Part shown: positions 5,600 to 61,371 of the stretch, piece by piece | How positions within the stretch are numbered: the stretch's first letter is position 1 | Layout of the letters: each line of letters opens with the position of its first letter | IMG/VR virus record: IMGVR_UViG_3300042049_000003 | Span: 5,949-69,948 of that record | Direction: 5' to 3' (one strand) | Source: a virus | Length of the DNA stretch: 64,000 nt | The notes under the pieces: model-generated | Databases searched by the model: none | Seen by the model: only the letters and a program-made list of their open reading frames with translations | What the model was told of the DNA's origin: nothing | Translations under genes and position numbers: made by a program

Positions 5600-6178
5600 G
5601 TGCCTATTCATCTAAATGCAGTCGAAGGAGACACTTGGCAGAACAGTTATTTCTCTCTTACTACTATTAGAACAAAATTAGCATTAGAAAGAGGGACAGA
5701 TAAGTGGGATGCACTTACTGATGAGAAAAAGAAAGAGTTAGCTATTCAAACAACAAGTTTCATGGATACAAGATTTCGGTTTTATGGAAATAAGGTTAAT
5801 GCTGGACAAGGGTTAAGAGGGTTTCCTACTACAAACAGAATATCTGAAAGTGAGTCTGGTTTTAGTTTCTTTGAAAGAGCTTATATTTGGCTAGTCTCTA
5901 CAGTCTTAGAAGCCCCTTCCCTATTAAACTCTATGGGTGTAGAGGTTGGTAGTGGTTCAGCTGAAAAAGGTATTAAAATTTGGGAAACTACTGAACTGAA
6001 GATAGAGTATGAAGATCCTCCAGATACAGGGGTTCCTGCACCTGTAAATGATAGTCAGAATGTTTTCTCTTTTACTTTGAAAGAATTAGAAGTCCTTCTT
6101 GCAGAGATAGCGGAACCGTTGTCAAAATCCTCATTTGACGATAAGACAGTTCCGTTTAAGTATAGTAGAGGGTTTTAA
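5600..6178 (+). CDS. DnaT-like domain head completion protein
   Basis: NSYFSL...WDALTDEKKKEL...TSFMDTRFRFYGNK...QGL pattern of the phage DnaT-like neck family. Confidence 0.65.
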   Translation: MPIHLNAVEGDTWQNSYFSLTTIRTKLALERGTDKWDALTDEKKKELAIQTTSFMDTRFRFYGNKVNAGQGLRGFPTTNRISESESGFSFFERAYIWLVSTVLEAPSLLNSMGVEVGSGSAEKGIKIWETTELKIEYEDPPDTGVPAPVNDSQNVFSFTLKELEVLLAEIAEPLSKSSFDDKTVPFKYSRGF

Positions 6179-15832: not shown

Positions 15833-18800
15833 ATGGCAACTCTATTACTAGGTGTAGCTAGTTCCGGTCTGGCTACTGCAACAGGAGTTACGGCAGCAGC
15901 TGCTGGAGGTTCTATTGGAGCATCGTTTGTTCAAGCAGGGATTGGAGCTGTTTCAGTTATCTTAGGAAGTTATATCGATAATCTTCTGTTTGGAGGTATT
16001 CGAGATAGAACTCATGAGGGACCAAGGCTAACCGAATTAAAAATAACAGGTTCTACAGAAGGCGCACCTATTCTTGAAGTGTTTGGGAATGTTAGAGTTG
16101 CAGGTCAACTTATATGGGCTACAAGACATAATCAGATAGAGACTCCAGATTTACCTATAAAAATTAAGTATACTATCTCCCTTGCTATAGCAATATGTAA
16201 GGGTCCTGTCTCAATGATAAGAAGAGTGTGGGCTGATCAACAGTTCATAGATCAGAGCGATAGTAAAGTAAGGATTTACTATGGAGACCAAACTCAAGAT
16301 ATAGATCCTTTAATGACTACTATTCAAGGGTCTGGGAACGTCCCATCCTATAGAGGAGTTTGTTATATCGTTTTAGAAGACCTAGACTTACAAAGATTTG
16401 GCAACAGAATACCTATTTTTAATTTTGAGGTTGTGAATACTTTACCTAAGACAGGTGGTTCTGTAGAAGACCTAATACAAGCTGTAACTATGATTCCAGG
16501 TTCTACAGAGCATGGATATGATCCACTTGAAGTTAAGGATGTTTCTGGGTTCCCTACCACAGAGAATGAAACATCTTCAGAACAACAGACTCGATCTGAC
16601 GCACAGAGAACAGAGAAATCAGCTGGGACAGTTGTAAACATTCAAAATAAGATAGGGTACACCGATTGGAAAGCTTCACTAGATGAACTACAAAAAGTGT
16701 GTAAGAACGTAAAGTCCGTTCTACTTGTTATAGCTTGGATGGGTTCTGATCTTAGGTTAGGAGAGTGTAAGATAAGACCTAAGATAGAGTACAAAGGTGG
16801 AAAGGTTACAAACCCTATATGGAAGGTGAATAATATAACGAGGCAAGACGCTATCCTCGTAAGCTATTTCAATGGTTCTGCTTCGTACGGATCATCCCCT
16901 TCTGATGGATCTGTTATAAGAGCTATAAAGGATTTAAAGGAAAGAGGGTTAGAAGTTATATTTTACCCTTTAATCATGATGGATATTCCGCAAGGGAGTA
17001 CTTTACCTAACCCATACAGCCCAGGTCAAAATCAACCTTCATACCCTTGGAGAGGTAGGATTACATGTTTTCCTGCACCGGGTGTACCTAACTCACCAGA
17101 TAAATCTAGTGCTGTTAACGCAGAAATAGATAAATTTTTCGGTACTGCTATTCCTTCAGATTTTATCTTTAGAGATGAGACAACTATTTTTAGACAAGGG
17201 GTAGTTGTAGCAGAAGAGGATGAAGAGTGGGGTTTTAACAGAATGGTTCTTCACTATGCGCACTTATGCGCAAATGCAGGTGGTGTAGATTCATTTATAA
17301 TAGGGACAGAACTTAGGGGGATAACCTCACTAAGATCAAGTACCTCTACATACCCTGCTGTAGATAAGCTTGTAGAGCTTTCTTCTCATGTGAGAACTGT
17401 AGTTGGATCTTCTACTAAGATAGGTTATTCAGCAGATTGGTCAGAGTATGCAGGTCATGACCCATATGACGGTTCAAATGATTTTGCTTTCCATTTAGAT
17501 ACATTATGGGCTTCTTCCAATATAGACTTTGTAGGGATTGATAATTACTTACCTATGTCTGATTGGAGAGAGGGAAGGCAGCACTTAGATTCTAAAGCAG
17601 GGTTTAAGAGTATTTATGATATTGAATATCTTCACTCAAACATAGAAGGTGGAGAGTACTACGACTGGTATTATTCTTCTGAAGGTGCTACCGGTAATGA
17701 AGCATCTGTAGATAGAATAAATCAGAACCGTAGAGATATAACAGATGGAAGGTATAATAAACCTTGGGTTTATAGGAAGAAAGATTTTAAGAATTGGTGG
17801 TTAAACTTTCACTTTAACAGGGAGGCAGGTGCAGAAGTATCTTCACATACAGCATGGGTTCCTCAATCAAAGCCTATAGTGTTTACGGAGGCTGGTACTG
17901 CTGCGGTAGATAGGTCAACAAACCAACCAAACGTTTTTGTTGATGATAAATCTTTTGAAAGTTTTAAACCTTACTTTTCAATGTCTCGAAGAGATGACTA
18001 TATGCAGAGGCAGTTCTTGAGATCTATACATTCGTATTGGGAACCGTCTAAAGGTAACAATCCCTCCTCGAATAGGTATAGCGGTTCTATGTTAGATAGT
18101 GATAGAATTCATATATGGACGTGGGATGCTAGGCCTTATCCAGCTTTCCCTAACAGAACAGACTATTGGTCAGATGCTAAGAACTGGTCAGAGAATCACT
18201 GGATTACAGGAAGGATGGGTTTCGTGGATTTAAAAGATTTGGTGCTAGCTATTGCATTGAGAAGCGGCGCACCTGCTTCTAGAATAGATGCTTCTTCTTT
18301 AGAAGGAACTGTCCAAGGATATGTTATCGACAGAAGAATGTCTTCTAGAGCAGCTTTAAATCAGTTAATGAGTTTATACAGGTTCTCTGCTATAGAGACA
18401 GACGGAAAGATTAAGTTCCAGCATAGAAACCAAGCTCCGACAGTCTTTATCCCTACAGCAGATTTAATCAGAGATGTGACTGATGATGATAGCAATTTAT
18501 ATAATATTGCAAGATCACAAGAAACTGATTTACCTAGGGTATTGTCTTTCAATTACATTGATACCTTAGCCAACTATAGACAATCCGTAGTAGATGCTAA
18601 GAACAGAACCACTACATCTACTCGAGAGGATAGCATAAATTATTCCATAGGCTTGAACACAGCTCAAGCTCAAGGCATTGTAGAAAGCTTACTTTCAGAG
18701 GTATGGGCTGGAAGAGAGAAGTTAGATTTCACTCTTCCAATGAAGTACTGGTATTTAGAGCCTGGGGATGTCATTACCTTTTCTCTAGCTGGTTTCGTAT

Positions 18801-19879
18801 CTACGTTTAGGATTATAACGGTTATCAAGGAGTTTGCGATTCAGGTTGAGTGTATAAGGATGGATGAGAGTTCGTTCACAGTTATACCAGGTACAGATAG
18901 AGATCCCATTAAGGAGATTATTGCTATTTCTTCTCCTGTAAAGCTCTACATTCTTGAACTTCCTTTAAAGGAAGATACAGCAAACCCTTCATACCCTTTT
19001 GCAGCAAGTGCAGGAGCACCTTGGTCAGGTGCTTCTATCTACAGCTCAGCTACAACGACTAACTACACTCTCAATATATCTATTCCTAATAGAACTGTGT
19101 TAGGAAACACTAGATCAGTTCTTAAAGGTTCACAATCCATCTTTCTGCAAACAGATGAAGAGTTGTTATTAGATTTAAACTTCGGAAATTTACAATCTAT
19201 CTCAAAGGCAGATTTACTTAACGGAGGAAATTTATGTGCTATAGAAACTTCAACGGATGTTTGGGAGGTTCTACAGTTTATGACTGCTGAGGCAACAGGT
19301 GTGAATCAGTGGAAGATATCTAAATTCCTTAGGGGTAGAGGTGGTACAGAACATGCGATAGCAGCCACACTCGCTATAGGAGCTAAATTTGTGCTATTAG
19401 ATAGTTCAACGTTAGTGAAGATAACATCTGGTACAGGAAACATTGGGGCTGCTATTAATTATAAGTACGGTCCTTCAAACAAAGCTATAGGTTCAGACAG
19501 TTACTCTACAACAGCGTTTACAGCAAAGGGTGTAGCATTAAAGCCACTCTCTCCGGTACACCTTAAAGTAGTAAGGGATGGTAGCACTTCTGATGTAGAG
19601 ATATCTTGGATAAGGAGGACTAGATATGATGGAAGGTGGGCAAACCATGTAGATGTTCCACTGAACGAAGATAGTGAGTTATACGAAGTTACAGTTTTTA
19701 AAGGTTCTGTTTTAAAGAGAACAGAAATTATATCTACCTCTACTTATACGTACACGAGTGCTAAACAGATAGAAGATACTATTAGTTCAGGGTCTGGGTC
19801 GGCAATTAATGTAACAGTTAAGCAGATAAGTGCAATAGTAGGGAACGGTTACCCTTCGTCAATAGAGTATAGGAGTTAA
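15833..19879 (+). CDS. Tail-tip/host specificity protein, GTA megatron-like with glycoside hydrolase TIM-barrel-like domain
   Basis: 1348 aa with YPWRGRITC, HYAHLCANAGGVDSFIIGTELRG, YSADWSEY, DFVGIDNYLPMSDWR, WTWDARPYPAFP and SWIRRTR motifs. Confidence 0.92.
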   Translation: MATLLLGVASSGLATATGVTAAAAGGSIGASFVQAGIGAVSVILGSYIDNLLFGGIRDRTHEGPRLTELKITGSTEGAPILEVFGNVRVAGQLIWATRHNQIETPDLPIKIKYTISLAIAICKGPVSMIRRVWADQQFIDQSDSKVRIYYGDQTQDIDPLMTTIQGSGNVPSYRGVCYIVLEDLDLQRFGNRIPIFNFEVVNTLPKTGGSVEDLIQAVTMIPGSTEHGYDPLEVKDVSGFPTTENETSSEQQTRSDAQRTEKSAGTVVNIQNKIGYTDWKASLDELQKVCKNVKSVLLVIAWMGSDLRLGECKIRPKIEYKGGKVTNPIWKVNNITRQDAILVSYFNGSASYGSSPSDGSVIRAIKDLKERGLEVIFYPLIMMDIPQGSTLPNPYSPGQNQPSYPWRGRITCFPAPGVPNSPDKSSAVNAEIDKFFGTAIPSDFIFRDETTIFRQGVVVAEEDEEWGFNRMVLHYAHLCANAGGVDSFIIGTELRGITSLRSSTSTYPAVDKLVELSSHVRTVVGSSTKIGYSADWSEYAGHDPYDGSNDFAFHLDTLWASSNIDFVGIDNYLPMSDWREGRQHLDSKAGFKSIYDIEYLHSNIEGGEYYDWYYSSEGATGNEASVDRINQNRRDITDGRYNKPWVYRKKDFKNWWLNFHFNREAGAEVSSHTAWVPQSKPIVFTEAGTAAVDRSTNQPNVFVDDKSFESFKPYFSMSRRDDYMQRQFLRSIHSYWEPSKGNNPSSNRYSGSMLDSDRIHIWTWDARPYPAFPNRTDYWSDAKNWSENHWITGRMGFVDLKDLVLAIALRSGAPASRIDASSLEGTVQGYVIDRRMSSRAALNQLMSLYRFSAIETDGKIKFQHRNQAPTVFIPTADLIRDVTDDDSNLYNIARSQETDLPRVLSFNYIDTLANYRQSVVDAKNRTTTSTREDSINYSIGLNTAQAQGIVESLLSEVWAGREKLDFTLPMKYWYLEPGDVITFSLAGFVSTFRIITVIKEFAIQVECIRMDESSFTVIPGTDRDPIKEIIAISSPVKLYILELPLKEDTANPSYPFAASAGAPWSGASIYSSATTTNYTLNISIPNRTVLGNTRSVLKGSQSIFLQTDEELLLDLNFGNLQSISKADLLNGGNLCAIETSTDVWEVLQFMTAEATGVNQWKISKFLRGRGGTEHAIAATLAIGAKFVLLDSSTLVKITSGTGNIGAAINYKYGPSNKAIGSDSYSTTAFTAKGVALKPLSPVHLKVVRDGSTSDVEISWIRRTRYDGRWANHVDVPLNEDSELYEVTVFKGSVLKRTEIISTSTYTYTSAKQIEDTISSGSGSAINVTVKQISAIVGNGYPSSIEYRS

Positions 19880-19881
19880 AA

Positions 19882-20634
19882 ATGCCGACAACACGATCAA
19901 AAATTCCGTATATCGTTACAAACCAAGCTTCGAAAGAAGTAACTTTTGCTGAAGCAATGAATATTTTAGATGTAGTGGTCAATTGTAGTGCTATTAATAT
20001 GTCCACTACTACCCCTCCAGCAAGTCCAGTCGATGGTGATATTTATGTAGTTGCAACCGGTGCAACGGGTATTTGGCAAACGGAGGTTAATAGTATTGCG
20101 GCTTATCAATCCGGGTGGGTTTATATTAAACCATTTAAAGGATTAATTGTTTATAATGAATCTGATAATATTTCATACAGGTTTTCCACTCTCAACTATT
20201 CTGCTCTATCTTCGGGCGGTTCTAGCGGTGGTTCTAGTTTTACTCTCCCTAACTCCAACACTCAACAGATAGTAGAGACAGCAAGTTCTGCTTCTACTGG
20301 GTTAGGAATTCTAGAGGAAGAGTTGACCTTGACAGGAGCTTCTGTCACTTCAACAATAATGATTCCAAGTAGATCTATCGTAGAGGCTGTTTGTGTTAGA
20401 ACCACTCACCACGTTACTGGTGCGGCTGCATACGACTGTGGTGTCACTGGGGAGACAACAAAGTACGGTGGTAGGTTGAGTGTGTTTGCTGACAGTGTCA
20501 ATATAGGAGTCACAGGACCTACAGCTTTCTATAGTCCTACATCGATCATTCTCACCGCACAGGGAGGGTCTTTTACGGGAGGTAGAGTAAGAGTCAGTAT
20601 TCACTATAAGACATACATACCTCCGCAATCATAG
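19882..20634 (+). CDS. DUF2793-like virion/fibre-associated protein
   Basis: IPYIVTNQASKEVTFAEAMNILD...TPPASPVDGDIYVVATGATGIW; C-terminal beta domain. Confidence 0.8.
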   Translation: MPTTRSKIPYIVTNQASKEVTFAEAMNILDVVVNCSAINMSTTTPPASPVDGDIYVVATGATGIWQTEVNSIAAYQSGWVYIKPFKGLIVYNESDNISYRFSTLNYSALSSGGSSGGSSFTLPNSNTQQIVETASSASTGLGILEEELTLTGASVTSTIMIPSRSIVEAVCVRTTHHVTGAAAYDCGVTGETTKYGGRLSVFADSVNIGVTGPTAFYSPTSIILTAQGGSFTGGRVRVSIHYKTYIPPQS

Positions 20635-20669
20635 AAGGGTAAATAAATACAGATACAAAAGGAAAAAGG

Positions 20670-22220
20670 ATGTGGAATGCGAACGATATTATTAACAAGA
20701 CAAAGATAGATTTAAAAGATAACGGAATATTTAAACCTTTGTCAGGTAAAGTTCCTTTTGAATATCAGAAGGTTGCGTCAACTTTAATGTTGTTAAGACC
20801 TAGAATGGTTCTAGGAGATGATGTAGGGCTTGGTAAGACTTTAGAGATGATTCTCTCTATGAGTTATATGAAGTTTAAGAATCCAGAGACTAAGTTTCTT
20901 GTTTTCACAGAAATATCTGCTCTTCATCAATGGCAGAAGGAGTTAAGAGATCTAACCCCTTCTCTTACTTCTATTATAATCACAGCAGAGACGCATAGAG
21001 ATATTACTAATAGGGTCGCTGTTATGAGAAATCATAACAGCGATGTTGTCATTTCTACCTACTCGATGTTGTATAAGCACTGTGAAGATTTGAAGAAGGG
21101 TTTACAACCAAGATGGGTGTTTATAGCGGATGAACCAGACATATTTAAAAGCATAACATGTATAGCTCACAAAAAGGCTTTTGCCTTAGTGAACAATGAA
21201 GGCGGCCCTTGTAGGGCTTATGGGCTAACCGCTACTTTGGTAGGGAATAGGTTGTCAGAGGCGTATGGTATCTTTAGAGTTATCATGCCTTCGTTAATGC
21301 CTAATTATAGAGTTTTTGAGAATATGTTCTGTGTGAAGTACAGGAATCGGATTAGAGGTTATAAAAACTTAGATAGTTTTAAAAGTATAGTTTCAGACCA
21401 TTTTTTTGGAAGATTACAGGATGACCCAAAAGTTGAACAAGAGTTACCAGAAGTAATCACTAAAGATATACCTGTGGTCTGTTCTGTAGATCAATCATGG
21501 AAGATTGTAGAAGCTTTTGAAAGACTTATAGAAACTGTAGAAGGTTCCGTTAAGAGACTTCTCCCGCTTCCTTCTATTACATATGCTAAGTTAATGACAA
21601 ATGACCCTAGGTTAAAAGGTTTTCCAGAGCAAGGTGCAAAGGTAAAAGCTTTACAAGATCTAGTTACAGGAACCCTTAAGGGTAAGAGAGTTATCATTTT
21701 CTGTTTCTTTAAAATGATGATTTTAAATCTGAAAGAGGACTTTAAGAAAATTGGGATTGATAGCCTAAAGATAACTGGAGATGAGAATATTCTTCAGAAG
21801 AAACGTGTTGTAGAGAGATTTATGTCTGATGGGGATGACCATGTTCCCATACTGTTTATGAATAAAGCAGGTTCTAAAGCTCTTAATCTACAATCCGCAG
21901 GGCATGTAGTCTTCTTTGATCTACCTTGGGGTTATGATTTATATAGACAAGTAATAGGTCGTGTAAAGAGAACAGGATCTCTCCACTCAAAAATAGGAGT
22001 TTTTAGATTCCTAGCTGAACTTCACCCAGAGGTAGAGAAAGAGTTTAAATCTAAACGAACGATGGATCATTTTACGTTAGATATCATTCTACGAAAGTTT
22101 GAGCTTTGGAAGTCCTTAACAGGAGACAATAAGACAATGGACAGTGGAGAAGGGGATATAGAAGAGATTTTTAACGATATAATCTCTTCTTATAAGAGAG
22201 AGGTACAAAATGAGTTTTAG
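20670..22220 (+). CDS. SNF2/SF2-type helicase
   Basis: LGDDVGLGKT, IADEPD, LTATL, ALNLQSAGHVVFFDLPW and QVIGRVKRTG motifs. Confidence 0.9.
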   Translation: MWNANDIINKTKIDLKDNGIFKPLSGKVPFEYQKVASTLMLLRPRMVLGDDVGLGKTLEMILSMSYMKFKNPETKFLVFTEISALHQWQKELRDLTPSLTSIIITAETHRDITNRVAVMRNHNSDVVISTYSMLYKHCEDLKKGLQPRWVFIADEPDIFKSITCIAHKKAFALVNNEGGPCRAYGLTATLVGNRLSEAYGIFRVIMPSLMPNYRVFENMFCVKYRNRIRGYKNLDSFKSIVSDHFFGRLQDDPKVEQELPEVITKDIPVVCSVDQSWKIVEAFERLIETVEGSVKRLLPLPSITYAKLMTNDPRLKGFPEQGAKVKALQDLVTGTLKGKRVIIFCFFKMMILNLKEDFKKIGIDSLKITGDENILQKKRVVERFMSDGDDHVPILFMNKAGSKALNLQSAGHVVFFDLPWGYDLYRQVIGRVKRTGSLHSKIGVFRFLAELHPEVEKEFKSKRTMDHFTLDIILRKFELWKSLTGDNKTMDSGEGDIEEIFNDIISSYKREVQNEF

Positions 22221-53322: not shown

Positions 53323-53757
53323 ATGAATGAAGAGAAAGAACAACGTAAATTAGACGAAGAGTTAGTTATCTCATGCACCTTGGGTCATACGAAAGTTGTT
53401 CAACTCCTCCTCGAAAACAGCGCAGACGTCAACACAACTGATAAGGATGGCAACTCACCCCTACATCACGCATGTTCAAGGGGACATACGGATGTTGTTC
53501 GACTACTCCTTAAAAACGACGCAAACGTCAATGCGATTAATAATGAGGATAACACACCATTATATATCGCATGTAGGTACGGTCATACGATAGTTGTGAA
53601 ACTCCTCCTCGAAAACGGCGCAAACGTCAACACAACTTATGGTAAAGGGTGGTCACCACTACGTATCGCACATTTCCTAGATTATATAGATATAGAAGAT
53701 CTTCTAAAAGTGTGTATCAAGAGAGAAGAGTTTAAAGAGAATAAAGAAAGGAAATAA
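53323..53757 (+). CDS. Ankyrin repeat protein, near-consensus class
   Basis: N-cap EQRKLDEEL, 3-4 repeats, C-cap. Confidence 0.95.
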   Translation: MNEEKEQRKLDEELVISCTLGHTKVVQLLLENSADVNTTDKDGNSPLHHACSRGHTDVVRLLLKNDANVNAINNEDNTPLYIACRYGHTIVVKLLLENGANVNTTYGKGWSPLRIAHFLDYIDIEDLLKVCIKREEFKENKERK

Positions 53758-54487: not shown

Positions 54488-54897
54488 TTGAAGAGAAAGA
54501 ACAACGTAAATTAGATCGAGGGTTAGTTAAGGCATGTTCGAGAGGTCGTTTAGATATTGTTGAATTACTAATTGAAAAAGGCGCAAACATAAACAATGTT
54601 GATGATACCAGCTGGTCCCCTCTACATTATGCATGTTATAATGGTTATACGAATATTGTTCAAGATCTCCTCGAAAGACAGGCGGATATTGAGATTCAAA
54701 CCGAGTGTGGTAGCTCCCCACTACATCTCGCATGTATTGATGGTCATACAGATGGTGTTAAATTACTCCTAGAAAAAGGTGCAAATGTTAACTTGACTCG
54801 TACGAATGGAGAGACACCACTATATGAGGCATATAGGTGGGGTTATACTGATATCATAGAACTTCTAATAGAACATATGAATAAAGAAAGAGGGTAA
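54484..54897 (+). CDS. Ankyrin repeat protein, near-consensus class
   Basis: N-cap nearly identical to that of 53323 (EEKEQRKLD). Confidence 0.95.
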   Translation: MIEEKEQRKLDRGLVKACSRGRLDIVELLIEKGANINNVDDTSWSPLHYACYNGYTNIVQDLLERQADIEIQTECGSSPLHLACIDGHTDGVKLLLEKGANVNLTRTNGETPLYEAYRWGYTDIIELLIEHMNKERG

Positions 54898-54898
54898 A

Positions 54899-56113
54899 AT
54901 GACTATAGAGAAAAAAGAACAAGCTAAATTAGATGAGTTGTTCATTATATCATGTGAATTGGGTAATACTGATCTTGTTCAAGAACTCATAGAAAAGGGT
55001 GCAAACGTTAACATGACTAAGTTGAATGGTCAGAAACCGCTGCATCGTGCATGTTGGAATGGTCATATAGAAGTTGTTAAATTACTCCTTACAAATGATG
55101 TAGATGTTAACGTGGTTAATAAGCAGGGCTACACACCGCTACATATCTCATGTGAATTTGATAATACAGAGATCGTAAAGCTGTTAAAACAGCACATCAA
55201 GAAAATGGATAAAATGACTACAGAGAAAAAAGTTCAAGATAAATTAGGGGTAGAGTTAGCTCAAGCCTGTTTAGAAGGTCATCTGGATATTGTTAAAGAA
55301 CTCCTAGAAAAAGGTGCAAATGTTAACTTGCCTGATAGTAAGGGTCAGACTCCACTGCATATCGCATGTTTTCAAGGTCATACAGATGTTGTTCAACTCC
55401 TCCTCGACAATGGTGCAGATGTTAACGTGACAGGTGGTTTTGGAAGTTCTCCCCTACATATCACATGTTGGCAAGGTCATACAGAGATTGTTCGACTCCT
55501 CCTAGAAAAAGGCGCACTCATAAACGTGACTGATGATTATGACAGCACACCCCTGCATATCGCATGTAACCATAGTTATACCGAGATCATAAAGCTGTTA
55601 AAACAGTACATAAAGAAAGGGTATAATATGGATAATGAGAAAAATAAAAAGTTACTAGATGCATGTTTAAATGGTGATTTAAAGATTATTCAACGACTCC
55701 TTAAAAACGGTGAACATGTCGACACAACTGATGAGCTTGGCTTCACACCACTGCATATCGCATGTTACAATGATAATACAGAGATTGTTCAACTCCTCAT
55801 AGACAACGGCGCAAACATCAACACAGTTGATGAGTATGACGACACACCATTACATAGCGCATGTTTAGAAGGTCATACTAACATTGTTAAACTCCTCCTT
55901 AAAAACGGCGCAAATGTTAACGTTGTTACTAAGGGTGGAAACACACCACTGCATTTCGCATGTTTAATGGGTAATCAGGTCGTTGTTGAGACACTCCTCA
56001 AGAACAGTGCAGACATCAATGTGTCTAATGAGGATGGTAGGTCTCCCCTACATCTCGCAAGTGAGGCAGGTCATACAGAGATTAGAAATCTTTTAGAGAA
56101 CCTTCCTTCATGA
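54899..56113 (+). CDS. Ankyrin repeat protein, apparent in-frame fusion of three gene units
   Basis: Internal C-cap/RBS/ATG junctions at 55214 and 55628. Confidence 0.9.
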   Translation: MTIEKKEQAKLDELFIISCELGNTDLVQELIEKGANVNMTKLNGQKPLHRACWNGHIEVVKLLLTNDVDVNVVNKQGYTPLHISCEFDNTEIVKLLKQHIKKMDKMTTEKKVQDKLGVELAQACLEGHLDIVKELLEKGANVNLPDSKGQTPLHIACFQGHTDVVQLLLDNGADVNVTGGFGSSPLHITCWQGHTEIVRLLLEKGALINVTDDYDSTPLHIACNHSYTEIIKLLKQYIKKGYNMDNEKNKKLLDACLNGDLKIIQRLLKNGEHVDTTDELGFTPLHIACYNDNTEIVQLLIDNGANINTVDEYDDTPLHSACLEGHTNIVKLLLKNGANVNVVTKGGNTPLHFACLMGNQVVVETLLKNSADINVSNEDGRSPLHLASEAGHTEIRNLLENLPS

Positions 56114-56224
56114 ATAATGTTTAGGTTGTTATACAGAGACTTCGAACTACTTATAACTTATATAAGAAGAAAGAAAGGTGATGTAAATCGCTTTATTAGC
56201 AATAAATTATTGGAGGGGAAGATC

Positions 56225-58816
56225 ATGGATAAAAGACAAAATTTCTGTATTGTACTTCCACCACCGAATGTGACAGGGACTTTACACATTGGACATGCTC
56301 TCAATAGTACGTTGCAGGATATTCTTATTAGATGGCGTCGCATGTGTGGTGACGATGTTTTGTGGCAGCCAGGCGTAGATCATGCTGGGATAGCTACTCA
56401 GATGGTTGTGACTAGAGAGCTTGAAAAAGAGCATGGTGTTGGATGTGTTTCTGGCATGGATCGTGACACTTTTCTTTCGCATGTATGGGCGTGGAAGAAA
56501 AAATCAGGTTCAAGGATTAAAGAACAGTTAGACCGCCTTGGGGCATCGTGCAATTGGGAGCGGGAACGCTTTACGATGGATGAAGAATTTTCTCGTGCTG
56601 TACGACATGCCTTTGTAACATTATACAGAGAAGGGTTGATTTTTCGTGATCATCGCCTGGTAAATTGGGATCCCTATTTAGAGACTGCTATATCAGATTT
56701 AGAGGTTGTTTCCAAGACAGTTCAAGGAACATTGTGGTATTTCCAATATCCCATAGAAGGTTGTAAGCAAACAATTACAGTCGCAACAACTCGTCCAGAG
56801 ACTATTCCAGGAGATACAGGGATAGCAGTTCATCCTGATGACAAGCGCTATAGGGGATTGATTGGTAAATTTGCAATTCTGCCAATGGTCGGTAGAAGAA
56901 TACCGATTGTTGCGGATAGTCATGTAGACCAGACTTTGGGGACGGGTGCTGTCAAAATTACACCTGCGCATGATATGGATGATTTTCAGATAGGCAAACG
57001 GCATAACCTGCGTAGCATTAACATTATGGACGTATCTGCTCACATTCAGCTTGCTGGAAATGAGGATTTCCTAGAGGGTTTGCCCGAAGAATCATCCAGA
57101 GAAGTTTCTGCAACGATAGATGCTCTAGATGGTTTGGATCGCTTTGCTGCAAGGGATTGGATTGTCAAGCATTGTGGTGAAACAGGTATTTTGGAAAAAG
57201 CTGTAGACCACGAGCATGTAGTTCCTTTTGGAGATCGTTCAGGAGTTCCCATAGAACCTTATCTCACATACCAATGGTTTGTTGATACGGCAGACATGGC
57301 TAAAAAAGCGATTGAAGTTGTAGAAGACGGGTCTATTAAATTTCATCCTGAGTCAGTGAAAAAAACCTACCTTAGTAGGTTAGAGACAATAGAACCTTGG
57401 TGTATTTCAAGGCAATTGATGTGGGGTCACAGAATTCCTCTATGGTATTCTGAGGATGGAGAGATATTTTGTGCAATATCAGAAGAAGATGCTCATAAAC
57501 AGGCAGAGAGTCACTTTAGGTTCGATGTTGAGTTAACTCAAGATACAGATGTTTTGGATACATGGTTTTCCTCTGCACTATGGGCGTTTGTAACTTTGGG
57601 ATGGCCTAACTCTACAATAGAGTTAGAGAAGTACTTTCCTAGTTCAATCTTAATGACAGGGTTTGACATTCTTTTCTTCTGGGTTACACGTATGATTATG
57701 TTCAGTTTGTATTTCATGAAAGATTTGAAAGGTGATGGGATTATTCCTTTTCGAGAGGTGTATATACACGCTCTTGTTCGTGATGAAAAGGGTCAGAAGA
57801 TGTCTAAATCCGCAGGGAATACTATTGATCCTTTGGACTTATGTGACAAATACGGTGTTGACGCTTTACGCTTTACCCTTGCATCTACTGCAACAATGGG
57901 GCAAGACATTAGAATTTCTGAAAGCAAAATGGAAAGCTGCCGTAATTTTTGTACAAAGATTCGGAACGCTGTAAAATACTGTCTGATAAACGAAGCCTTG
58001 CCACAGATAGGGTTTAATTCACAGACAGCGAAACATCCTATTAATAAATGGATTGTAGGTAGAAGTGCCTCGTTAGTAGAATCTGTAAGTTCTTCTCTTA
58101 AGGGATACCATTTTAATCGAGCAGCTGATAGAGTGTACTCCCACGTACGAGAGGAATTTTGTGATTTATATCTTGAGTTTTCCAAAGTCATTTTTTCTAA
58201 AGGGTCGTCTGAAGAGAAAGAAGAAACTAAAGCATGTATGGGATGGGCTGTGGAGAGAGTATTACAGGTTTTACATCCTTTTATGCCTTTTCACACACAA
58301 GGTCTTTCCTCTCTATTACAATGTAGTGGAAGTCTACAAGTCTGGCCTACGCTAGAAGAGCAAGAGAATGTACCACATGTTGACTTGATGGTGGTTTTGA
58401 TTGCAGAGATTAGGTCAATTCGTGCATCACTTAACATTTCTCATTCACAAGTATTCTGTATAAGTTTAGGTGACCTACCCGTCTATAATCTACACCAGAT
58501 TATAGAGGATTGTGCCAAAGTTAAGTGTAAAGAGGGGTTACAAGGTAAAAGTCTAGGTCTTTATATAGGGTCTTCAAAGGTAGAACTTTTTATTTTTGAT
58601 GAACTAGATTCAGACAACCTTATATCCACAACCACTAGAAAAATAGAAAGGGTAAATTTAAATATGAGTGTTATGAACAATCGTCTAAGTAATCCAGAGT
58701 TCATTGAGAAAGCTTCACCTTTTGCAATCGATAAATCTAGAAAGGATTTAGAAACCTTAGAGACAGATAAGCAAAATCTTCAGAAACTATTATGTCAATT
58801 GAAAGGTGTGGAATGA
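56225..58816 (+). CDS. valS: Valyl-tRNA synthetase
   Basis: LPPPNVTGTLHIGHAL (HIGH), DHAGIATQMVV, TTRPET and GTGAVKITPAHD editing domain, WCISRQLMWGHRIP, GQKMSKS, anticodon helix bundle and C-terminal coiled coil. Start ATG 56225 after GGAGG. Confidence 0.97.
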   Translation: MDKRQNFCIVLPPPNVTGTLHIGHALNSTLQDILIRWRRMCGDDVLWQPGVDHAGIATQMVVTRELEKEHGVGCVSGMDRDTFLSHVWAWKKKSGSRIKEQLDRLGASCNWERERFTMDEEFSRAVRHAFVTLYREGLIFRDHRLVNWDPYLETAISDLEVVSKTVQGTLWYFQYPIEGCKQTITVATTRPETIPGDTGIAVHPDDKRYRGLIGKFAILPMVGRRIPIVADSHVDQTLGTGAVKITPAHDMDDFQIGKRHNLRSINIMDVSAHIQLAGNEDFLEGLPEESSREVSATIDALDGLDRFAARDWIVKHCGETGILEKAVDHEHVVPFGDRSGVPIEPYLTYQWFVDTADMAKKAIEVVEDGSIKFHPESVKKTYLSRLETIEPWCISRQLMWGHRIPLWYSEDGEIFCAISEEDAHKQAESHFRFDVELTQDTDVLDTWFSSALWAFVTLGWPNSTIELEKYFPSSILMTGFDILFFWVTRMIMFSLYFMKDLKGDGIIPFREVYIHALVRDEKGQKMSKSAGNTIDPLDLCDKYGVDALRFTLASTATMGQDIRISESKMESCRNFCTKIRNAVKYCLINEALPQIGFNSQTAKHPINKWIVGRSASLVESVSSSLKGYHFNRAADRVYSHVREEFCDLYLEFSKVIFSKGSSEEKEETKACMGWAVERVLQVLHPFMPFHTQGLSSLLQCSGSLQVWPTLEEQENVPHVDLMVVLIAEIRSIRASLNISHSQVFCISLGDLPVYNLHQIIEDCAKVKCKEGLQGKSLGLYIGSSKVELFIFDELDSDNLISTTTRKIERVNLNMSVMNNRLSNPEFIEKASPFAIDKSRKDLETLETDKQNLQKLLCQLKGVE

Positions 58817-59817
58817 TTTCTTCAAAAGAGAAAGACTTGTTAAACAAACAACTTTTACAAATGCTTTACACAGGGAGTGAAGAGTGTGTTTTAAAGTTGC
58901 TTAAAGCAGGGGCAGACGTGAATGTGAACAATTCATTCACGTATTCCTTATTGCATCTAGCGTGTATAAAAGGGTACACAGAGGCTGTTAAGTGGATGAT
59001 AGATAAAGGAGCAGATGTTAACCTAATTAATTCCATTGGACAGACACCTTTCCATTACGCATGTAGGCACGGTTATGTAGAGATTATGAAGCTTCTTATA
59101 GAAAATGGAGTAGACATATATTTATTTAATAACGACGGTTACTCACCACTACACCTTTCATGTATTTATGACCAGAAAGAGTCTATCTTAGAACTCCTTA
59201 AAAACGGCGTAGACATCAACGTTCAGAGAGTGAATGGAGAATCACCTCTTGATCTTGCTTGTATAAGGGATAATAAAGATATTATTCAGATCTTGTTAGA
59301 TAATGGGGCAAAAGCTTTGTTGAAAGATAGTAACAAGCTTTCTACTTTGTCTAAAGCTCGTATTTCTGATAATGAGGAAGTTGTTAAATTACTTGAGACT
59401 GGTTTAGATGTTTTGAATAAAAATCAACATGAGTTAAATTGCACTCTTATTAGTGCTTGTTATAAAGGACATCATGATGTTGTCATATCTACGATAGAAG
59501 AAGGAGCAGACATAAATAGTATTAGTGAACATGGTAAGTCTGCATTATTCTTGTCGTGTAAGCATGGACATACAAGTATTGTTAAGTATCTTCTTGAAAA
59601 AGGTGCAGACGTGAATATAGCTGATAACTATGATAACACTCCTTTGTATGTTTCCTGTTCGAAGGGCTATTCGAAAACTGTAGCTTTATTACTAAAAAGT
59701 GGTGCAGATGTCAATCAAGCTAGTGTAAATCGTGAGACCCCTTTGAATTGCGCAAGGAGAAAGGGTTATACGAATTTAGTAGAGTTACTTGAGAGCTTCA
59801 TAATTTACTCTGTATAG
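58813..59817 (+). CDS. Ankyrin repeat protein (about 8-9 repeats)
   Basis: Overlaps the valS stop; GQTPFHYAC, GYSPLHLSC, GKSALFLSC. Confidence 0.95.
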   Translation: MISSKEKDLLNKQLLQMLYTGSEECVLKLLKAGADVNVNNSFTYSLLHLACIKGYTEAVKWMIDKGADVNLINSIGQTPFHYACRHGYVEIMKLLIENGVDIYLFNNDGYSPLHLSCIYDQKESILELLKNGVDINVQRVNGESPLDLACIRDNKDIIQILLDNGAKALLKDSNKLSTLSKARISDNEEVVKLLETGLDVLNKNQHELNCTLISACYKGHHDVVISTIEEGADINSISEHGKSALFLSCKHGHTSIVKYLLEKGADVNIADNYDNTPLYVSCSKGYSKTVALLLKSGADVNQASVNRETPLNCARRKGYTNLVELLESFIIYSV

Positions 59818-59851
59818 AATAAAGAAAGGAAATAAAATGGTTAAAACGAAA
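59809..59851 (+). repeat. Conserved gene-junction repeat (copies also at 53738-53773, 54463, 62754-62796, 63373-63407; weaker at 53296, 54880, 55610, 61404, 61501)
   Basis: (TCTGTAG)AGAATAAAGAWAGGAAATAAAATGRTTRAAACGA. 35/36 identity between 53738 and 59816, 40/43 between 59809 and 62754, and 35 bp identical between 62760 and 63373. Confidence 0.9.
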
Positions 59852-60646
59852 AATGTAACAGAGTTTAGGGGTTTGATTTTAACCGAAGAGCCAACAACAT
59901 CGAAACAAGTTCTTGTAGTGCATCCTGATATACGATCAAGAATAGACAAAATTATTCATGAGTTTAGACAGAGAGCCAAACTGAAATCACACGGCCTGTC
60001 TCACCGCAGGAAAATACTTTTGGTTGGGCCTCCTGGAACAGGTAAAACAATGACGGCGAATGTGTTGGCGCATGAGCTTCGTATCCCACTTCATACAATA
60101 CAAGTTGATCGTCTTGTAAGTCAGTATCTCGGAGAAACCAGCACAAGACTAAGACGGGTATTTGATTTCATGAAAGAAGAACTTGGTGTTTATTTCTTTG
60201 ATGAGTTTGATTCTATTGGTGGGGATAGAGGTTTAAGTAATGATGTTGTAGAAATGCGCCGTGTTTTAAATTCGTTCTTGCAATTTATAGAGCAAGATAT
60301 GTTGGATAGCATTGTTATTGCCGCAACGAATAACCAGGAACTTTTAGACAAAGCACTGTTTAGGCGTTTTGATGATGTCCTGTATTATAGTAACCCTACA
60401 GATGAGGAAAAACAACAATTGATAGAAAATGTATTAGGAACATTTAAACCTAAAGATTTCATGTGGGATCGTGTTATAGAGAACAGTTCTAATTTGTGTC
60501 ATGCAGAATTAGTTTCCGCCTGTCTCGACGCTGTTAAAAATGCGGTATTAGCAGATGAAAAGAAAGTTAGTGATTCAGACCTTTGTGACATGATTAACAA
60601 TAGAGAAGGTGAATACCATGTAATAGAGACTAAGGTTATTTCTTAA
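59837..60646 (+). CDS. AAA+ ATPase of the type normally paired with an S8 peptidase (IetA-like)
   Basis: GPPGTGKTMTA, YLGETSTRLRRVFD, YFFDEFDSIG..R...NDVVEMRRVLNSFLQFIEQD, IAATN, DKALFRRFDD. Confidence 0.85.
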   Translation: MVKTKNVTEFRGLILTEEPTTSKQVLVVHPDIRSRIDKIIHEFRQRAKLKSHGLSHRRKILLVGPPGTGKTMTANVLAHELRIPLHTIQVDRLVSQYLGETSTRLRRVFDFMKEELGVYFFDEFDSIGGDRGLSNDVVEMRRVLNSFLQFIEQDMLDSIVIAATNNQELLDKALFRRFDDVLYYSNPTDEEKQQLIENVLGTFKPKDFMWDRVIENSSNLCHAELVSACLDAVKNAVLADEKKVSDSDLCDMINNREGEYHVIETKVIS

Positions 60647-60687
60647 CATTTACGGGTCAATCACTTGATAATGTTGAGATAATAGGT

Positions 60688-60706
60688 TTAACAAGAAACT
60701 TGTTAA
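60688..60706. promoter_or_regulatory. 8-3-8 palindrome upstream of ankyrin gene 60727
   Basis: TTAACAAG-AAA-CTTGTTAA. Confidence 0.5.
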
Positions 60707-60726
60707 GAGAATGAAAGGTATATTTA

Positions 60727-61371
60727 ATGTTTCCATCACGTTCAAGGGTCAATGTAGTTCCTATTGATACACGACAACCACCACAAAGTGGTGAACCTTT
60801 AAAAGAGTTCGTTAGTATTGTGGATATTATGAAAAGATACCCACCACCAGAGAAACCTGCTCGCAAGTCTTCACCGAAAGATTCTTCAAGCTCTGCGTCG
60901 AAAACTTCTTCAAGTTTTGCAGAGATGACTCGTAGCTTTGCAGATATGTCGGCTAGAAGCTACTACAAAAAAACACCTATATCACATGACGGTTTCAGTC
61001 CTCTTCATTATAACAGCGCAACAGGTCGTTTACTCCGTGTTCGTGAAGGTTTGATTAGCGGTGCTAATATTAATAGTAGAGATCAAGACGGCGCTACCCC
61101 TCTTCACCTAGCTTGCTTCTACGGTAAGTTACCAGTCATTAGACAACTTCTAATGAGCAAGGCAGATTTAACAATTCGAGATTTTAAAGGTTTTACAGCC
61201 TTGCACAGCGCTTGTATGTGTGGACATCCAGGGTGTGTTAGATCACTTCTAGTAGCAGGTGCTGATACGCATGTTAGAGATAATGAAGGTCGTACACCTA
61301 TCAACATTGCTCGTAATCACAAGCATTATCCAGTTGTAAACCTCCTAATGGCTAAAGAATTCAACCATTAA
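60727..61371 (+). CDS. Ankyrin repeat protein with Ser/Pro/Lys-rich disordered N-terminus
   Basis: About 88-aa leader (PPPEKPARKSSPKDSSSSASKTSSS) followed by 3-4 repeats. Confidence 0.93.
   Translation: MFPSRSRVNVVPIDTRQPPQSGEPLKEFVSIVDIMKRYPPPEKPARKSSPKDSSSSASKTSSSFAEMTRSFADMSARSYYKKTPISHDGFSPLHYNSATGRLLRVREGLISGANINSRDQDGATPLHLACFYGKLPVIRQLLMSKADLTIRDFKGFTALHSACMCGHPGCVRSLLVAGADTHVRDNEGRTPINIARNHKHYPVVNLLMAKEFNH

Follow-up and report, generated by a model that had tools for sequence, protein, structure and literature searches.

A gene for a bacterial-type valyl-tRNA synthetase (ValRS) lies within a long run of ankyrin-repeat genes in the phage DNA analyzed here, a 64,000-nucleotide stretch (positions 5,949 to 69,948 of IMG/VR record IMGVR_UViG_3300042049_000003) that we call the window and to which coordinates refer unless stated otherwise. 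The gene occupies an open frame of 899 amino acids at 56117-58816 on the + strand, by which residues are numbered below, and its probable start at Met37 would give a protein of 863 amino acids (56225-58816, +). The source record is linear, 72,577 bp long and approximately 68% complete by CheckV. Every gene of the record is on the + strand, as are all features described here. Its early genes encode, in order, an amidase, the large terminase, the major head protein, the tape measure and a gene transfer agent (GTA)-type tail protein of 1348 amino acids with about 40% identity to counterparts from Rhodobacter, Caulobacter and Roseobacter siphoviruses; a helicase, PolA, a UvsX-like recombinase and ribonucleotide reductase (RNR) come next. 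This is a genuine tailed phage (siphovirus) genome from a mollusc microbiome, and a 72.6-kb record at this level of completeness implies a phage genome well under 200 kb. The ankyrin-repeat genes run from about 46.2 kb through the end of the record, in an array of more than 24 kb that contains two non-ankyrin genes, the one for ValRS and one for an AAA ATPase at 59837-60646.

The protein belongs to the ValRS family by curated equivalog models. It scored 1029.5 bits against the NCBIfam valS equivalog NF004349 (cut-off 704), matching to model position 858 of 860, and 903.5 bits against the TIGR00422 equivalog (cut-off 612.1), and it aligned to Thermus thermophilus ValRS (1GAX) with an E value of 1e-172. 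In this alignment, the HIGH motif (H57-I-G-H60, 56285-56296) falls on HMGH of 1GAX, and the KMSKS motif (K561-S565, 57797-57811) and the Asp and Trp residues of the valine pocket (equivalents of T. thermophilus D81, W456 and W495) are kept. The editing domain, connective peptide 1 (CP1), has approximate limits at residues 195-385 (56699-57271), includes TTRPET and GTGAVKITPAHDMDD, and contains the Pfam tRNA-synt_1_2 match at residues 249-306. All six Thermus residues that hydrolyze Thr-tRNA-Val (R216, T219, K270, T272, D276 and D279) are conserved, TTRPET and GAVKITPAHDMDD being the stretches aligned to them. The anticodon-binding helical domain follows at residues 643-778 (58043-58450; Pfam Anticodon_1, 86.8 bits), and the C-terminal coiled-coil tRNA-binding arm at residues 832-898 (58610-58810). 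The arm scored 24.1 bits against Pfam Val_tRNA-synt_C, just short of the 25.9 cut-off, and appeared as two helices (832-858 and 868-898) with predicted local distance difference test values (pLDDT) of 80-92 in an AlphaFold (AF2) model. This model, built from 53 sequences, had a mean pLDDT of 84.2 and a predicted template-modeling score of 0.77. Its best Foldseek match was 1GAX_A (template-modeling scores 0.75/0.78), and its neighbors included the mupirocin-resistant IleRS2 and the AgnB2 LeuRS. Both the catalytic and the editing sites thus look intact, and the enzyme looks whole apart from its N-terminus, in agreement with a sequence-only reading of the same DNA that had listed the HIGH, editing, KMSKS, anticodon-binding and coiled-coil regions as preserved.

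Two starts are available to the gene. ATG 56225 is preceded at a distance of 8 nt by a Shine-Dalgarno sequence (GGAGG, 56212-56216), read directly from the DNA and covered by a scan of all gene starts, whereas ATG 56117, placed 3 nt past the stop of the upstream ankyrin gene, has no ribosome-binding site, although most genes of this phage have one. Met37 is therefore the probable start, as the sequence-only reading had placed it, and it is also the one used in one JGI gene call (P0121). The 36 in-frame codons upstream of Met37 (56117-56224) are not recognizably a canonical ValRS N-terminus and may be an untranslated spacer. DNA homology to the closest bacterial valS starts exactly at codon 41, with none upstream. 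The profile of the canonical N-terminus scored these 36 codons no better than shuffled sequence (545 of 1000 shuffles reached a score as high), and the residues were modeled at pLDDT below 50, so the conserved N-terminal segment is absent with either start. Counted from Met37, only 11 residues precede PPPNVTG, compared to 37-77 in 118 of the 118 homologues having this motif, which bears out the earlier remark that the usual N-terminal segment is missing. At its other end the gene is tied to its neighbor, also as first noticed: the stop TGA (58814-58816) overlaps the ATG of the next ankyrin gene (58813) in the sequence ATGA (58813-58816), and this ATG is in frame with the ankyrin open reading frame and has an AGGTG site upstream.

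The sequence-only reading had named a chimeric contig, with flanks that map to a bacterial chromosome, as the danger. It could be argued that a bacterial valS was misjoined at repeats into the phage contig, since the array is repetitive and the Logan contigs break inside it. However, the same ValRS context was present in JGI (76-kb), ENA (42-kb) and Logan (4-kb) contigs, 99.7-99.9% identical to the window, and the 42-kb ENA contig also includes the end of the RNR gene. The protein on the three contigs (P0124) has the same frame and a single amino-acid difference from the ValRS of the window. In a second run of the "mollusc metagenome" study, a 4029-nt contig spans 55883-59911 and bridges both ValRS junctions at phage depth, and in both well-covered runs the depth of ValRS equals that of the phage. 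With identical junctions in three assemblies and a second sample, and with the bacterial allele present as a distinct sequence having its own chromosomal flank, a chimera is exceedingly improbable.

The search for relatives led to one bacterium. Among 5.8 billion proteins there was a single close cluster, the next best matches having about 50% identity (Hyphomicrobiales and other Alphaproteobacteria), and full-length identity reached a plateau of 48-52% in 401 alphaproteobacterial species genomes. The cluster has three members from sister metagenomes. P0002 retains the canonical N-terminus and matches the phage protein at 80% identity over residues 41-735. In P0125, the ValRS core and the anticodon domain are followed by six TPR_10 tetratricopeptide (TPR) repeats, after which comes a C-terminal arm of the normal ValRS kind. 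P0126 corresponds exactly to the final 150 residues of P0125; it is encoded at one end of the 11.6-kb contig L140, where it is followed by genes for cytochrome c, a solute-binding protein, ilvD, rodZ, an aminotransferase, dsbD, rlmH, rsfS and cobT, so that this contig is bacterial chromosome. The phage ValRS has no TPR insertion. In the bacterial gene (contig L002, 233-2992; L140, 1-478; P0125) the insert amounts to about 250 amino acids, in frame between the anticodon-binding domain and the coiled-coil arm; P0002 ends within the repeats, perhaps by repeat collapse in assembly. Other close relatives were sought in IMG/VR, in metagenome contigs and, by peptide patterns, in GTDB genomes, and none matched the roughly 80% identity of P0002; in the contig and GTDB scans the top segment was a short fragment at 51%. 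The only other IMG/VR match to ValRS was on a giant-virus metagenome-assembled genome (GVMAG) contig (L003, 7363-9684; 37% identity). By tblastn against INPHARED no genuine phage ValRS stood out, the full-length matches being at 37-39% identity and many of them bacterial contigs filed as phage.

In the ValRS tree, the phage and bacterial proteins are sisters (support 100/100), and the stem that leads to them, 1.56 changes per site in length, lies within the alphaproteobacterial clade (100/99), with branch lengths of 0.56 for the phage and 0.26 for the bacterium. Region by region along the protein, no other alphaproteobacterial ValRS is as close to the phage copy as this bacterial gene. The best tree joins the pair to two Rhodobacterales ValRS with weak support (75/96), and a Hyphomicrobiales grouping was not rejected by the approximately unbiased (AU) test (p 0.20). 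The sequence-only reading had likened the CP1 segment to that of Rhizobiales-type ValRS. The stretch HIQLAGNEDFLEGLPEE...LDGLDRF, a gap in Thermus, does fit the alphaproteobacterial consensus, and the tree and the AU test are compatible with either Rhodobacterales or Hyphomicrobiales. The chromosomal contig adds to this picture. Its IlvD has at most 73% identity to any species representative found, and a quick tree placed it within a group of 32 Rhodobacterales (Shimodaira-Hasegawa-like approximate likelihood ratio test 99), on a branch that is long (0.59, against a median of 0.18). Its GC content of 41.6%, with GC at third codon positions (GC3) of 0.26-0.42, is near phage values and low for Rhodobacterales. 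The bacterium is an uncultured, low-GC alphaproteobacterium, probably Rhodobacterales-like, and might represent a host-associated lineage whose genome is drifting.

Identity between the two genes is far from uniform. In sliding windows, a tract of about 1 kb at 56327-57316 (residues ~70-400), which spans the CP1 editing domain as well as some of the catalytic core, is near-identical to the bacterial valS of L002, with DNA identity of 93-97% and synonymous divergence (dS) of 0.05-0.3; protein identity over residues 76-400 is 94%. From residue ~400 on, DNA identity falls to 64-81% and dS is saturated (at least 1). The sequence-only reading had described the first kilobase as less ameliorated than the 3' end. 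The 5' part does differ, but the cause is the tract shared with the bacterium: total GC is raised at 56417-57316 (0.43-0.44) through codon positions 1 and 2, while GC3 stays flat and within the phage range. An attempt to read the direction of recombination from GC3 was abandoned, the bacterial baseline (0.33-0.38) being equal to that of the phage. Over the whole gene, GC3 (0.32) and valine-codon use are those of the phage core genes, so that silent sites carry no sign of a recent arrival. The ratio of nonsynonymous to synonymous divergence (dN/dS) against the bacterial gene, an average over both lineages, was 0.17-0.22 for the gene as a whole and fell to 0.135 in the old 3' part. Despite saturated dS, the 1.5 kb of 3' sequence outside the tract has neither a stop nor a frameshift.

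Further evidence for contact came from run X3 of the mollusc study, where parts of the tract are covered by a variant at a depth of 22-59, against about 2-10 for the phage. Each of the 23 differences between this variant and the window matches the bacterial allele of L002, which places bacterium and phage together in the mollusc study in varying proportions. An old capture followed by a later homologous exchange of about 1 kb is the simplest history that fits the mosaic. Recent homologous exchange would mean that both genomes met in one cell, and we infer from the shared tract and the co-occurrence that this bacterium is the host of the phage. The proposal that ValRS is a captured host gene thus gained a sister chromosomal valS with full support and a shared, near-identical 1-kb tract, and its promise as the best host marker in the window was kept, as it leads to a specific bacterial contig.

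The flanking genes are typical of the array. Upstream is an ankyrin-repeat gene at 54899-56113 (Pfam Ank, 304.6 bits) whose length differs by assembly: calls gave 404 amino acids in the window, 436 in contig L142 and 195 in contig L141, and indels in L141 or L142 relative to the window, at about 55265-55621, resemble repeat-number variation. Downstream is another at 58813-59817 (Pfam Ank_2, 258.6 bits). On L141, a longer JGI contig of the same phage, the array goes on at 17279-21305 with ankyrin proteins of 541 and 805 amino acids, in which up to 22 repeats were called, and the contig ends within an ankyrin gene. A 23-nt junction, GAATAAAGAAAGGAAATAAAATG, was found (up to 3 mismatches) in six copies at gene starts of the array and in none of the shuffled sequences. 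The copies are at 53739, 54464, 59817, 61501, 62762 and 63375, one of them ahead of the AAA ATPase gene. The idea that ValRS is a cassette bounded by such junctions was unsupported, as none of the six copies flanks it. At 60029-60332, within the AAA ATPase gene, all four mollusc runs have contigs of similar depth (78-97), independent of phage abundance, that match only about 20 nt on either side of this stretch and are otherwise unlike the window; they probably come from some other abundant organism with a related ATPase gene. A promoter and terminator scan of 54800-60800 gave no excess over shuffles. In a Pfam scan, no biosynthetic or toxin gene was found beside ValRS, the neighbors being ankyrin genes and the AAA ATPase, and the window as a whole contains no biosynthetic cluster. 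Relatives of the phage itself were scarce in IMG/VR, where the major head protein returned one match at 27% and PolA none. The tRNA-Val gene that the sequence-only reading had proposed to look for did not turn up: the 72.6-kb record has no tRNA gene of any kind, although the missing part of a genome that is about 68% complete could hold some.

On balance, and with some reservation, we favor the view that this is a phage-resident, host-derived, bacterial-type ValRS that is active and adds to valine charging, or replaces the host ValRS, during infection. An active enzyme aiding phage translation is suggested by the two intact catalytic sites and by purifying selection in the old part of the gene, as well as by precedent, as host-related synthetases occur in huge phages (PMC7162821) and the vs gene of T4 is needed in minimal medium (PMC13716836). 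The divergence pattern suggests that a siphovirus ancestor took valS from an alphaproteobacterial host lineage. The copy would have been resident long enough to adopt phage codon use, losing the canonical N-terminal ~40 residues and evolving approximately twice as fast as the bacterial copy, before a stretch of about 1 kb more recently underwent recombination with the bacterial valS. ValRS would be expressed along with the co-oriented ankyrin array and, as the phage record holds no tRNA, would charge the tRNA-Val of the host. Phage protein synthesis might thereby be sustained when the host ValRS is limiting or shut off.

Several observations weigh against this view. The N-terminal segment that the phage ValRS lacks was found in all 118 homologues examined. 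Of 349 columns conserved in at least 94% of 50 alphaproteobacterial ValRS, 69 are altered in the phage copy and about 47 in the bacterial copy; the other sequences deviate at 10 columns at most, with a median of 2. Five conserved Trp residues, all in the second half of the protein and all retained by the bacterial copy, are gone from the phage copy, and its C-terminal domain shares just 35% protein identity with the bacterial one. The dN/dS values describe the phage and bacterial lineages together and not the phage copy alone. The record contains no phage tRNA, and valine makes up 7.1-7.7% of phage proteins, not clearly more than the 6.5% of a small bacterial sample. The missing N-terminus, the altered tRNA-binding half and a host enzyme that carries TPR repeats lend some weight to other readings.

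One possibility, fairly unlikely in our judgement, is that the phage carries a spare ValRS that escapes a natural ValRS inhibitor, a toxin or a TPR-dependent host shut-off, and that it works by differing from the host enzyme, in having neither the TPR repeats nor the N-terminus, and not by added capacity. The sequence-only reading had offered a bypass of this kind, or support of translation in a starved endosymbiont, as what the gene may do. The six TPR_10 repeats of the bacterial ValRS, with none in the phage copy, would fit this, and both copies are unusually derived at conserved columns, as is expected of a contested protein. Spare synthetase copies on mobile elements confer immunity to synthetase inhibitors (PMC9437257), and the mupirocin-resistant IleRS2 and AgnB2 LeuRS are among the structural neighbors. 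On the other hand, neither a ValRS-targeting inhibitor nor a defense was found here, and no biosynthetic or toxin gene adjoins ValRS. No inhibitor or defense is known to be aimed at ValRS. It is rather improbable that the gene is a passenger of little or no benefit to the phage, looking intact mainly through repeated gene conversion from the essential valS of the host. The recent 1-kb conversion tract, the roughly twofold faster evolution outside it (branch lengths of 0.56 and 0.26) and the loss of conserved residues are what such a history would leave. Conversion does not, however, account for the 1.5 kb of 3' sequence outside the tract, which kept an open frame and a dN/dS of 0.135 at saturated dS. 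Also against a passenger are the retention of all catalytic motifs, the fully phage-like codon use and the presence of the same frame, with one amino-acid difference, in three assemblies.

A role outside translation is quite improbable. The truncated ValRS might serve as a sink or decoy for tRNA-Val, or as a partner of the ankyrin proteins acting on an animal or bacterial host; its position within the array, its translational coupling to it, the lost N-terminus and the altered tRNA-binding regions could be explained in this way. Nevertheless, the synthetic and editing sites are both intact, which is unexpected if catalysis were dispensable, and the Pfam scan showed no secretion signal or effector domain. 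We also consider, as an improbable conjecture, that ValRS is contested in this phage-host pair. The bacterial TPR module and fast evolution would serve to sense or resist takeover, the TPR-less and N-terminally shortened phage ValRS would keep translation going, and recurrent recombination would be part of the conflict. If true, phages would have come to act specifically on valine charging at least twice, here and independently with T4 Vs.

Whichever of these holds, the locus is of use beyond its own function. A lone synthetase in a siphovirus with no tRNA genes in its record is a simpler case for asking what one aminoacyl-tRNA synthetase (aaRS) gives a phage. Through the near-identical 1-kb tract, an uncultured phage is connected directly, by sequence, to a single uncultured bacterium of the mollusc microbiome. 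The TPR-bearing host enzyme and the TPR-less phage enzyme offer a natural comparison that, together with T4 vs, could help explain phage action on ValRS.

Compared to known systems, the phage ValRS shares domain order, motifs and fold with bacterial ValS (class Ia; T. thermophilus, PDB 1GAX/1IVS). It differs in being phage-encoded, in missing the conserved N-terminal ~40 residues and in its altered conserved columns (69 of 349). Its nearest counterpart is the sister bacterial valS (P0125/P0002/P0126; L002 and L140), which has about 80% protein identity over the aligned core and co-occurs with it in the mollusc study, but carries the canonical N-terminus and six TPR_10 repeats ahead of the C-terminal arm. 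The Vs protein of T4 is a small protein that binds host ValRS. The phage ValRS resembles Vs in acting, as we would predict, specifically on valine charging, although here a whole enzyme is carried. The vs gene is conditionally essential, being needed in minimal medium and under nutrient limitation (PMC13716836). As with MupA/MupB IleRS2 and AgnB2 LeuRS, a mobile element supplies an essential class Ia enzyme in duplicate; unlike with MupA and MupB, there is no known inhibitor here, and the MupA and MupB models score far under their cut-offs. Virus-encoded aaRS have been described from huge phages (Al-Shayeb et al., 2020; PMC7162821) as well as from giant viruses, and the phage ValRS, like those, is related to yet distinct from the enzyme of its probable host. 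Unlike in huge phages, it is a single aaRS in a genome well under 200 kb with no tRNA genes in the record. Host-acquired viral synthetases are therefore already known. What is unusual in this case is the occurrence in a siphovirus of well under 200 kb without tRNA genes in its record, together with the location in an ankyrin array, the missing N-terminal segment and the ongoing exchange with a TPR-bearing host gene.

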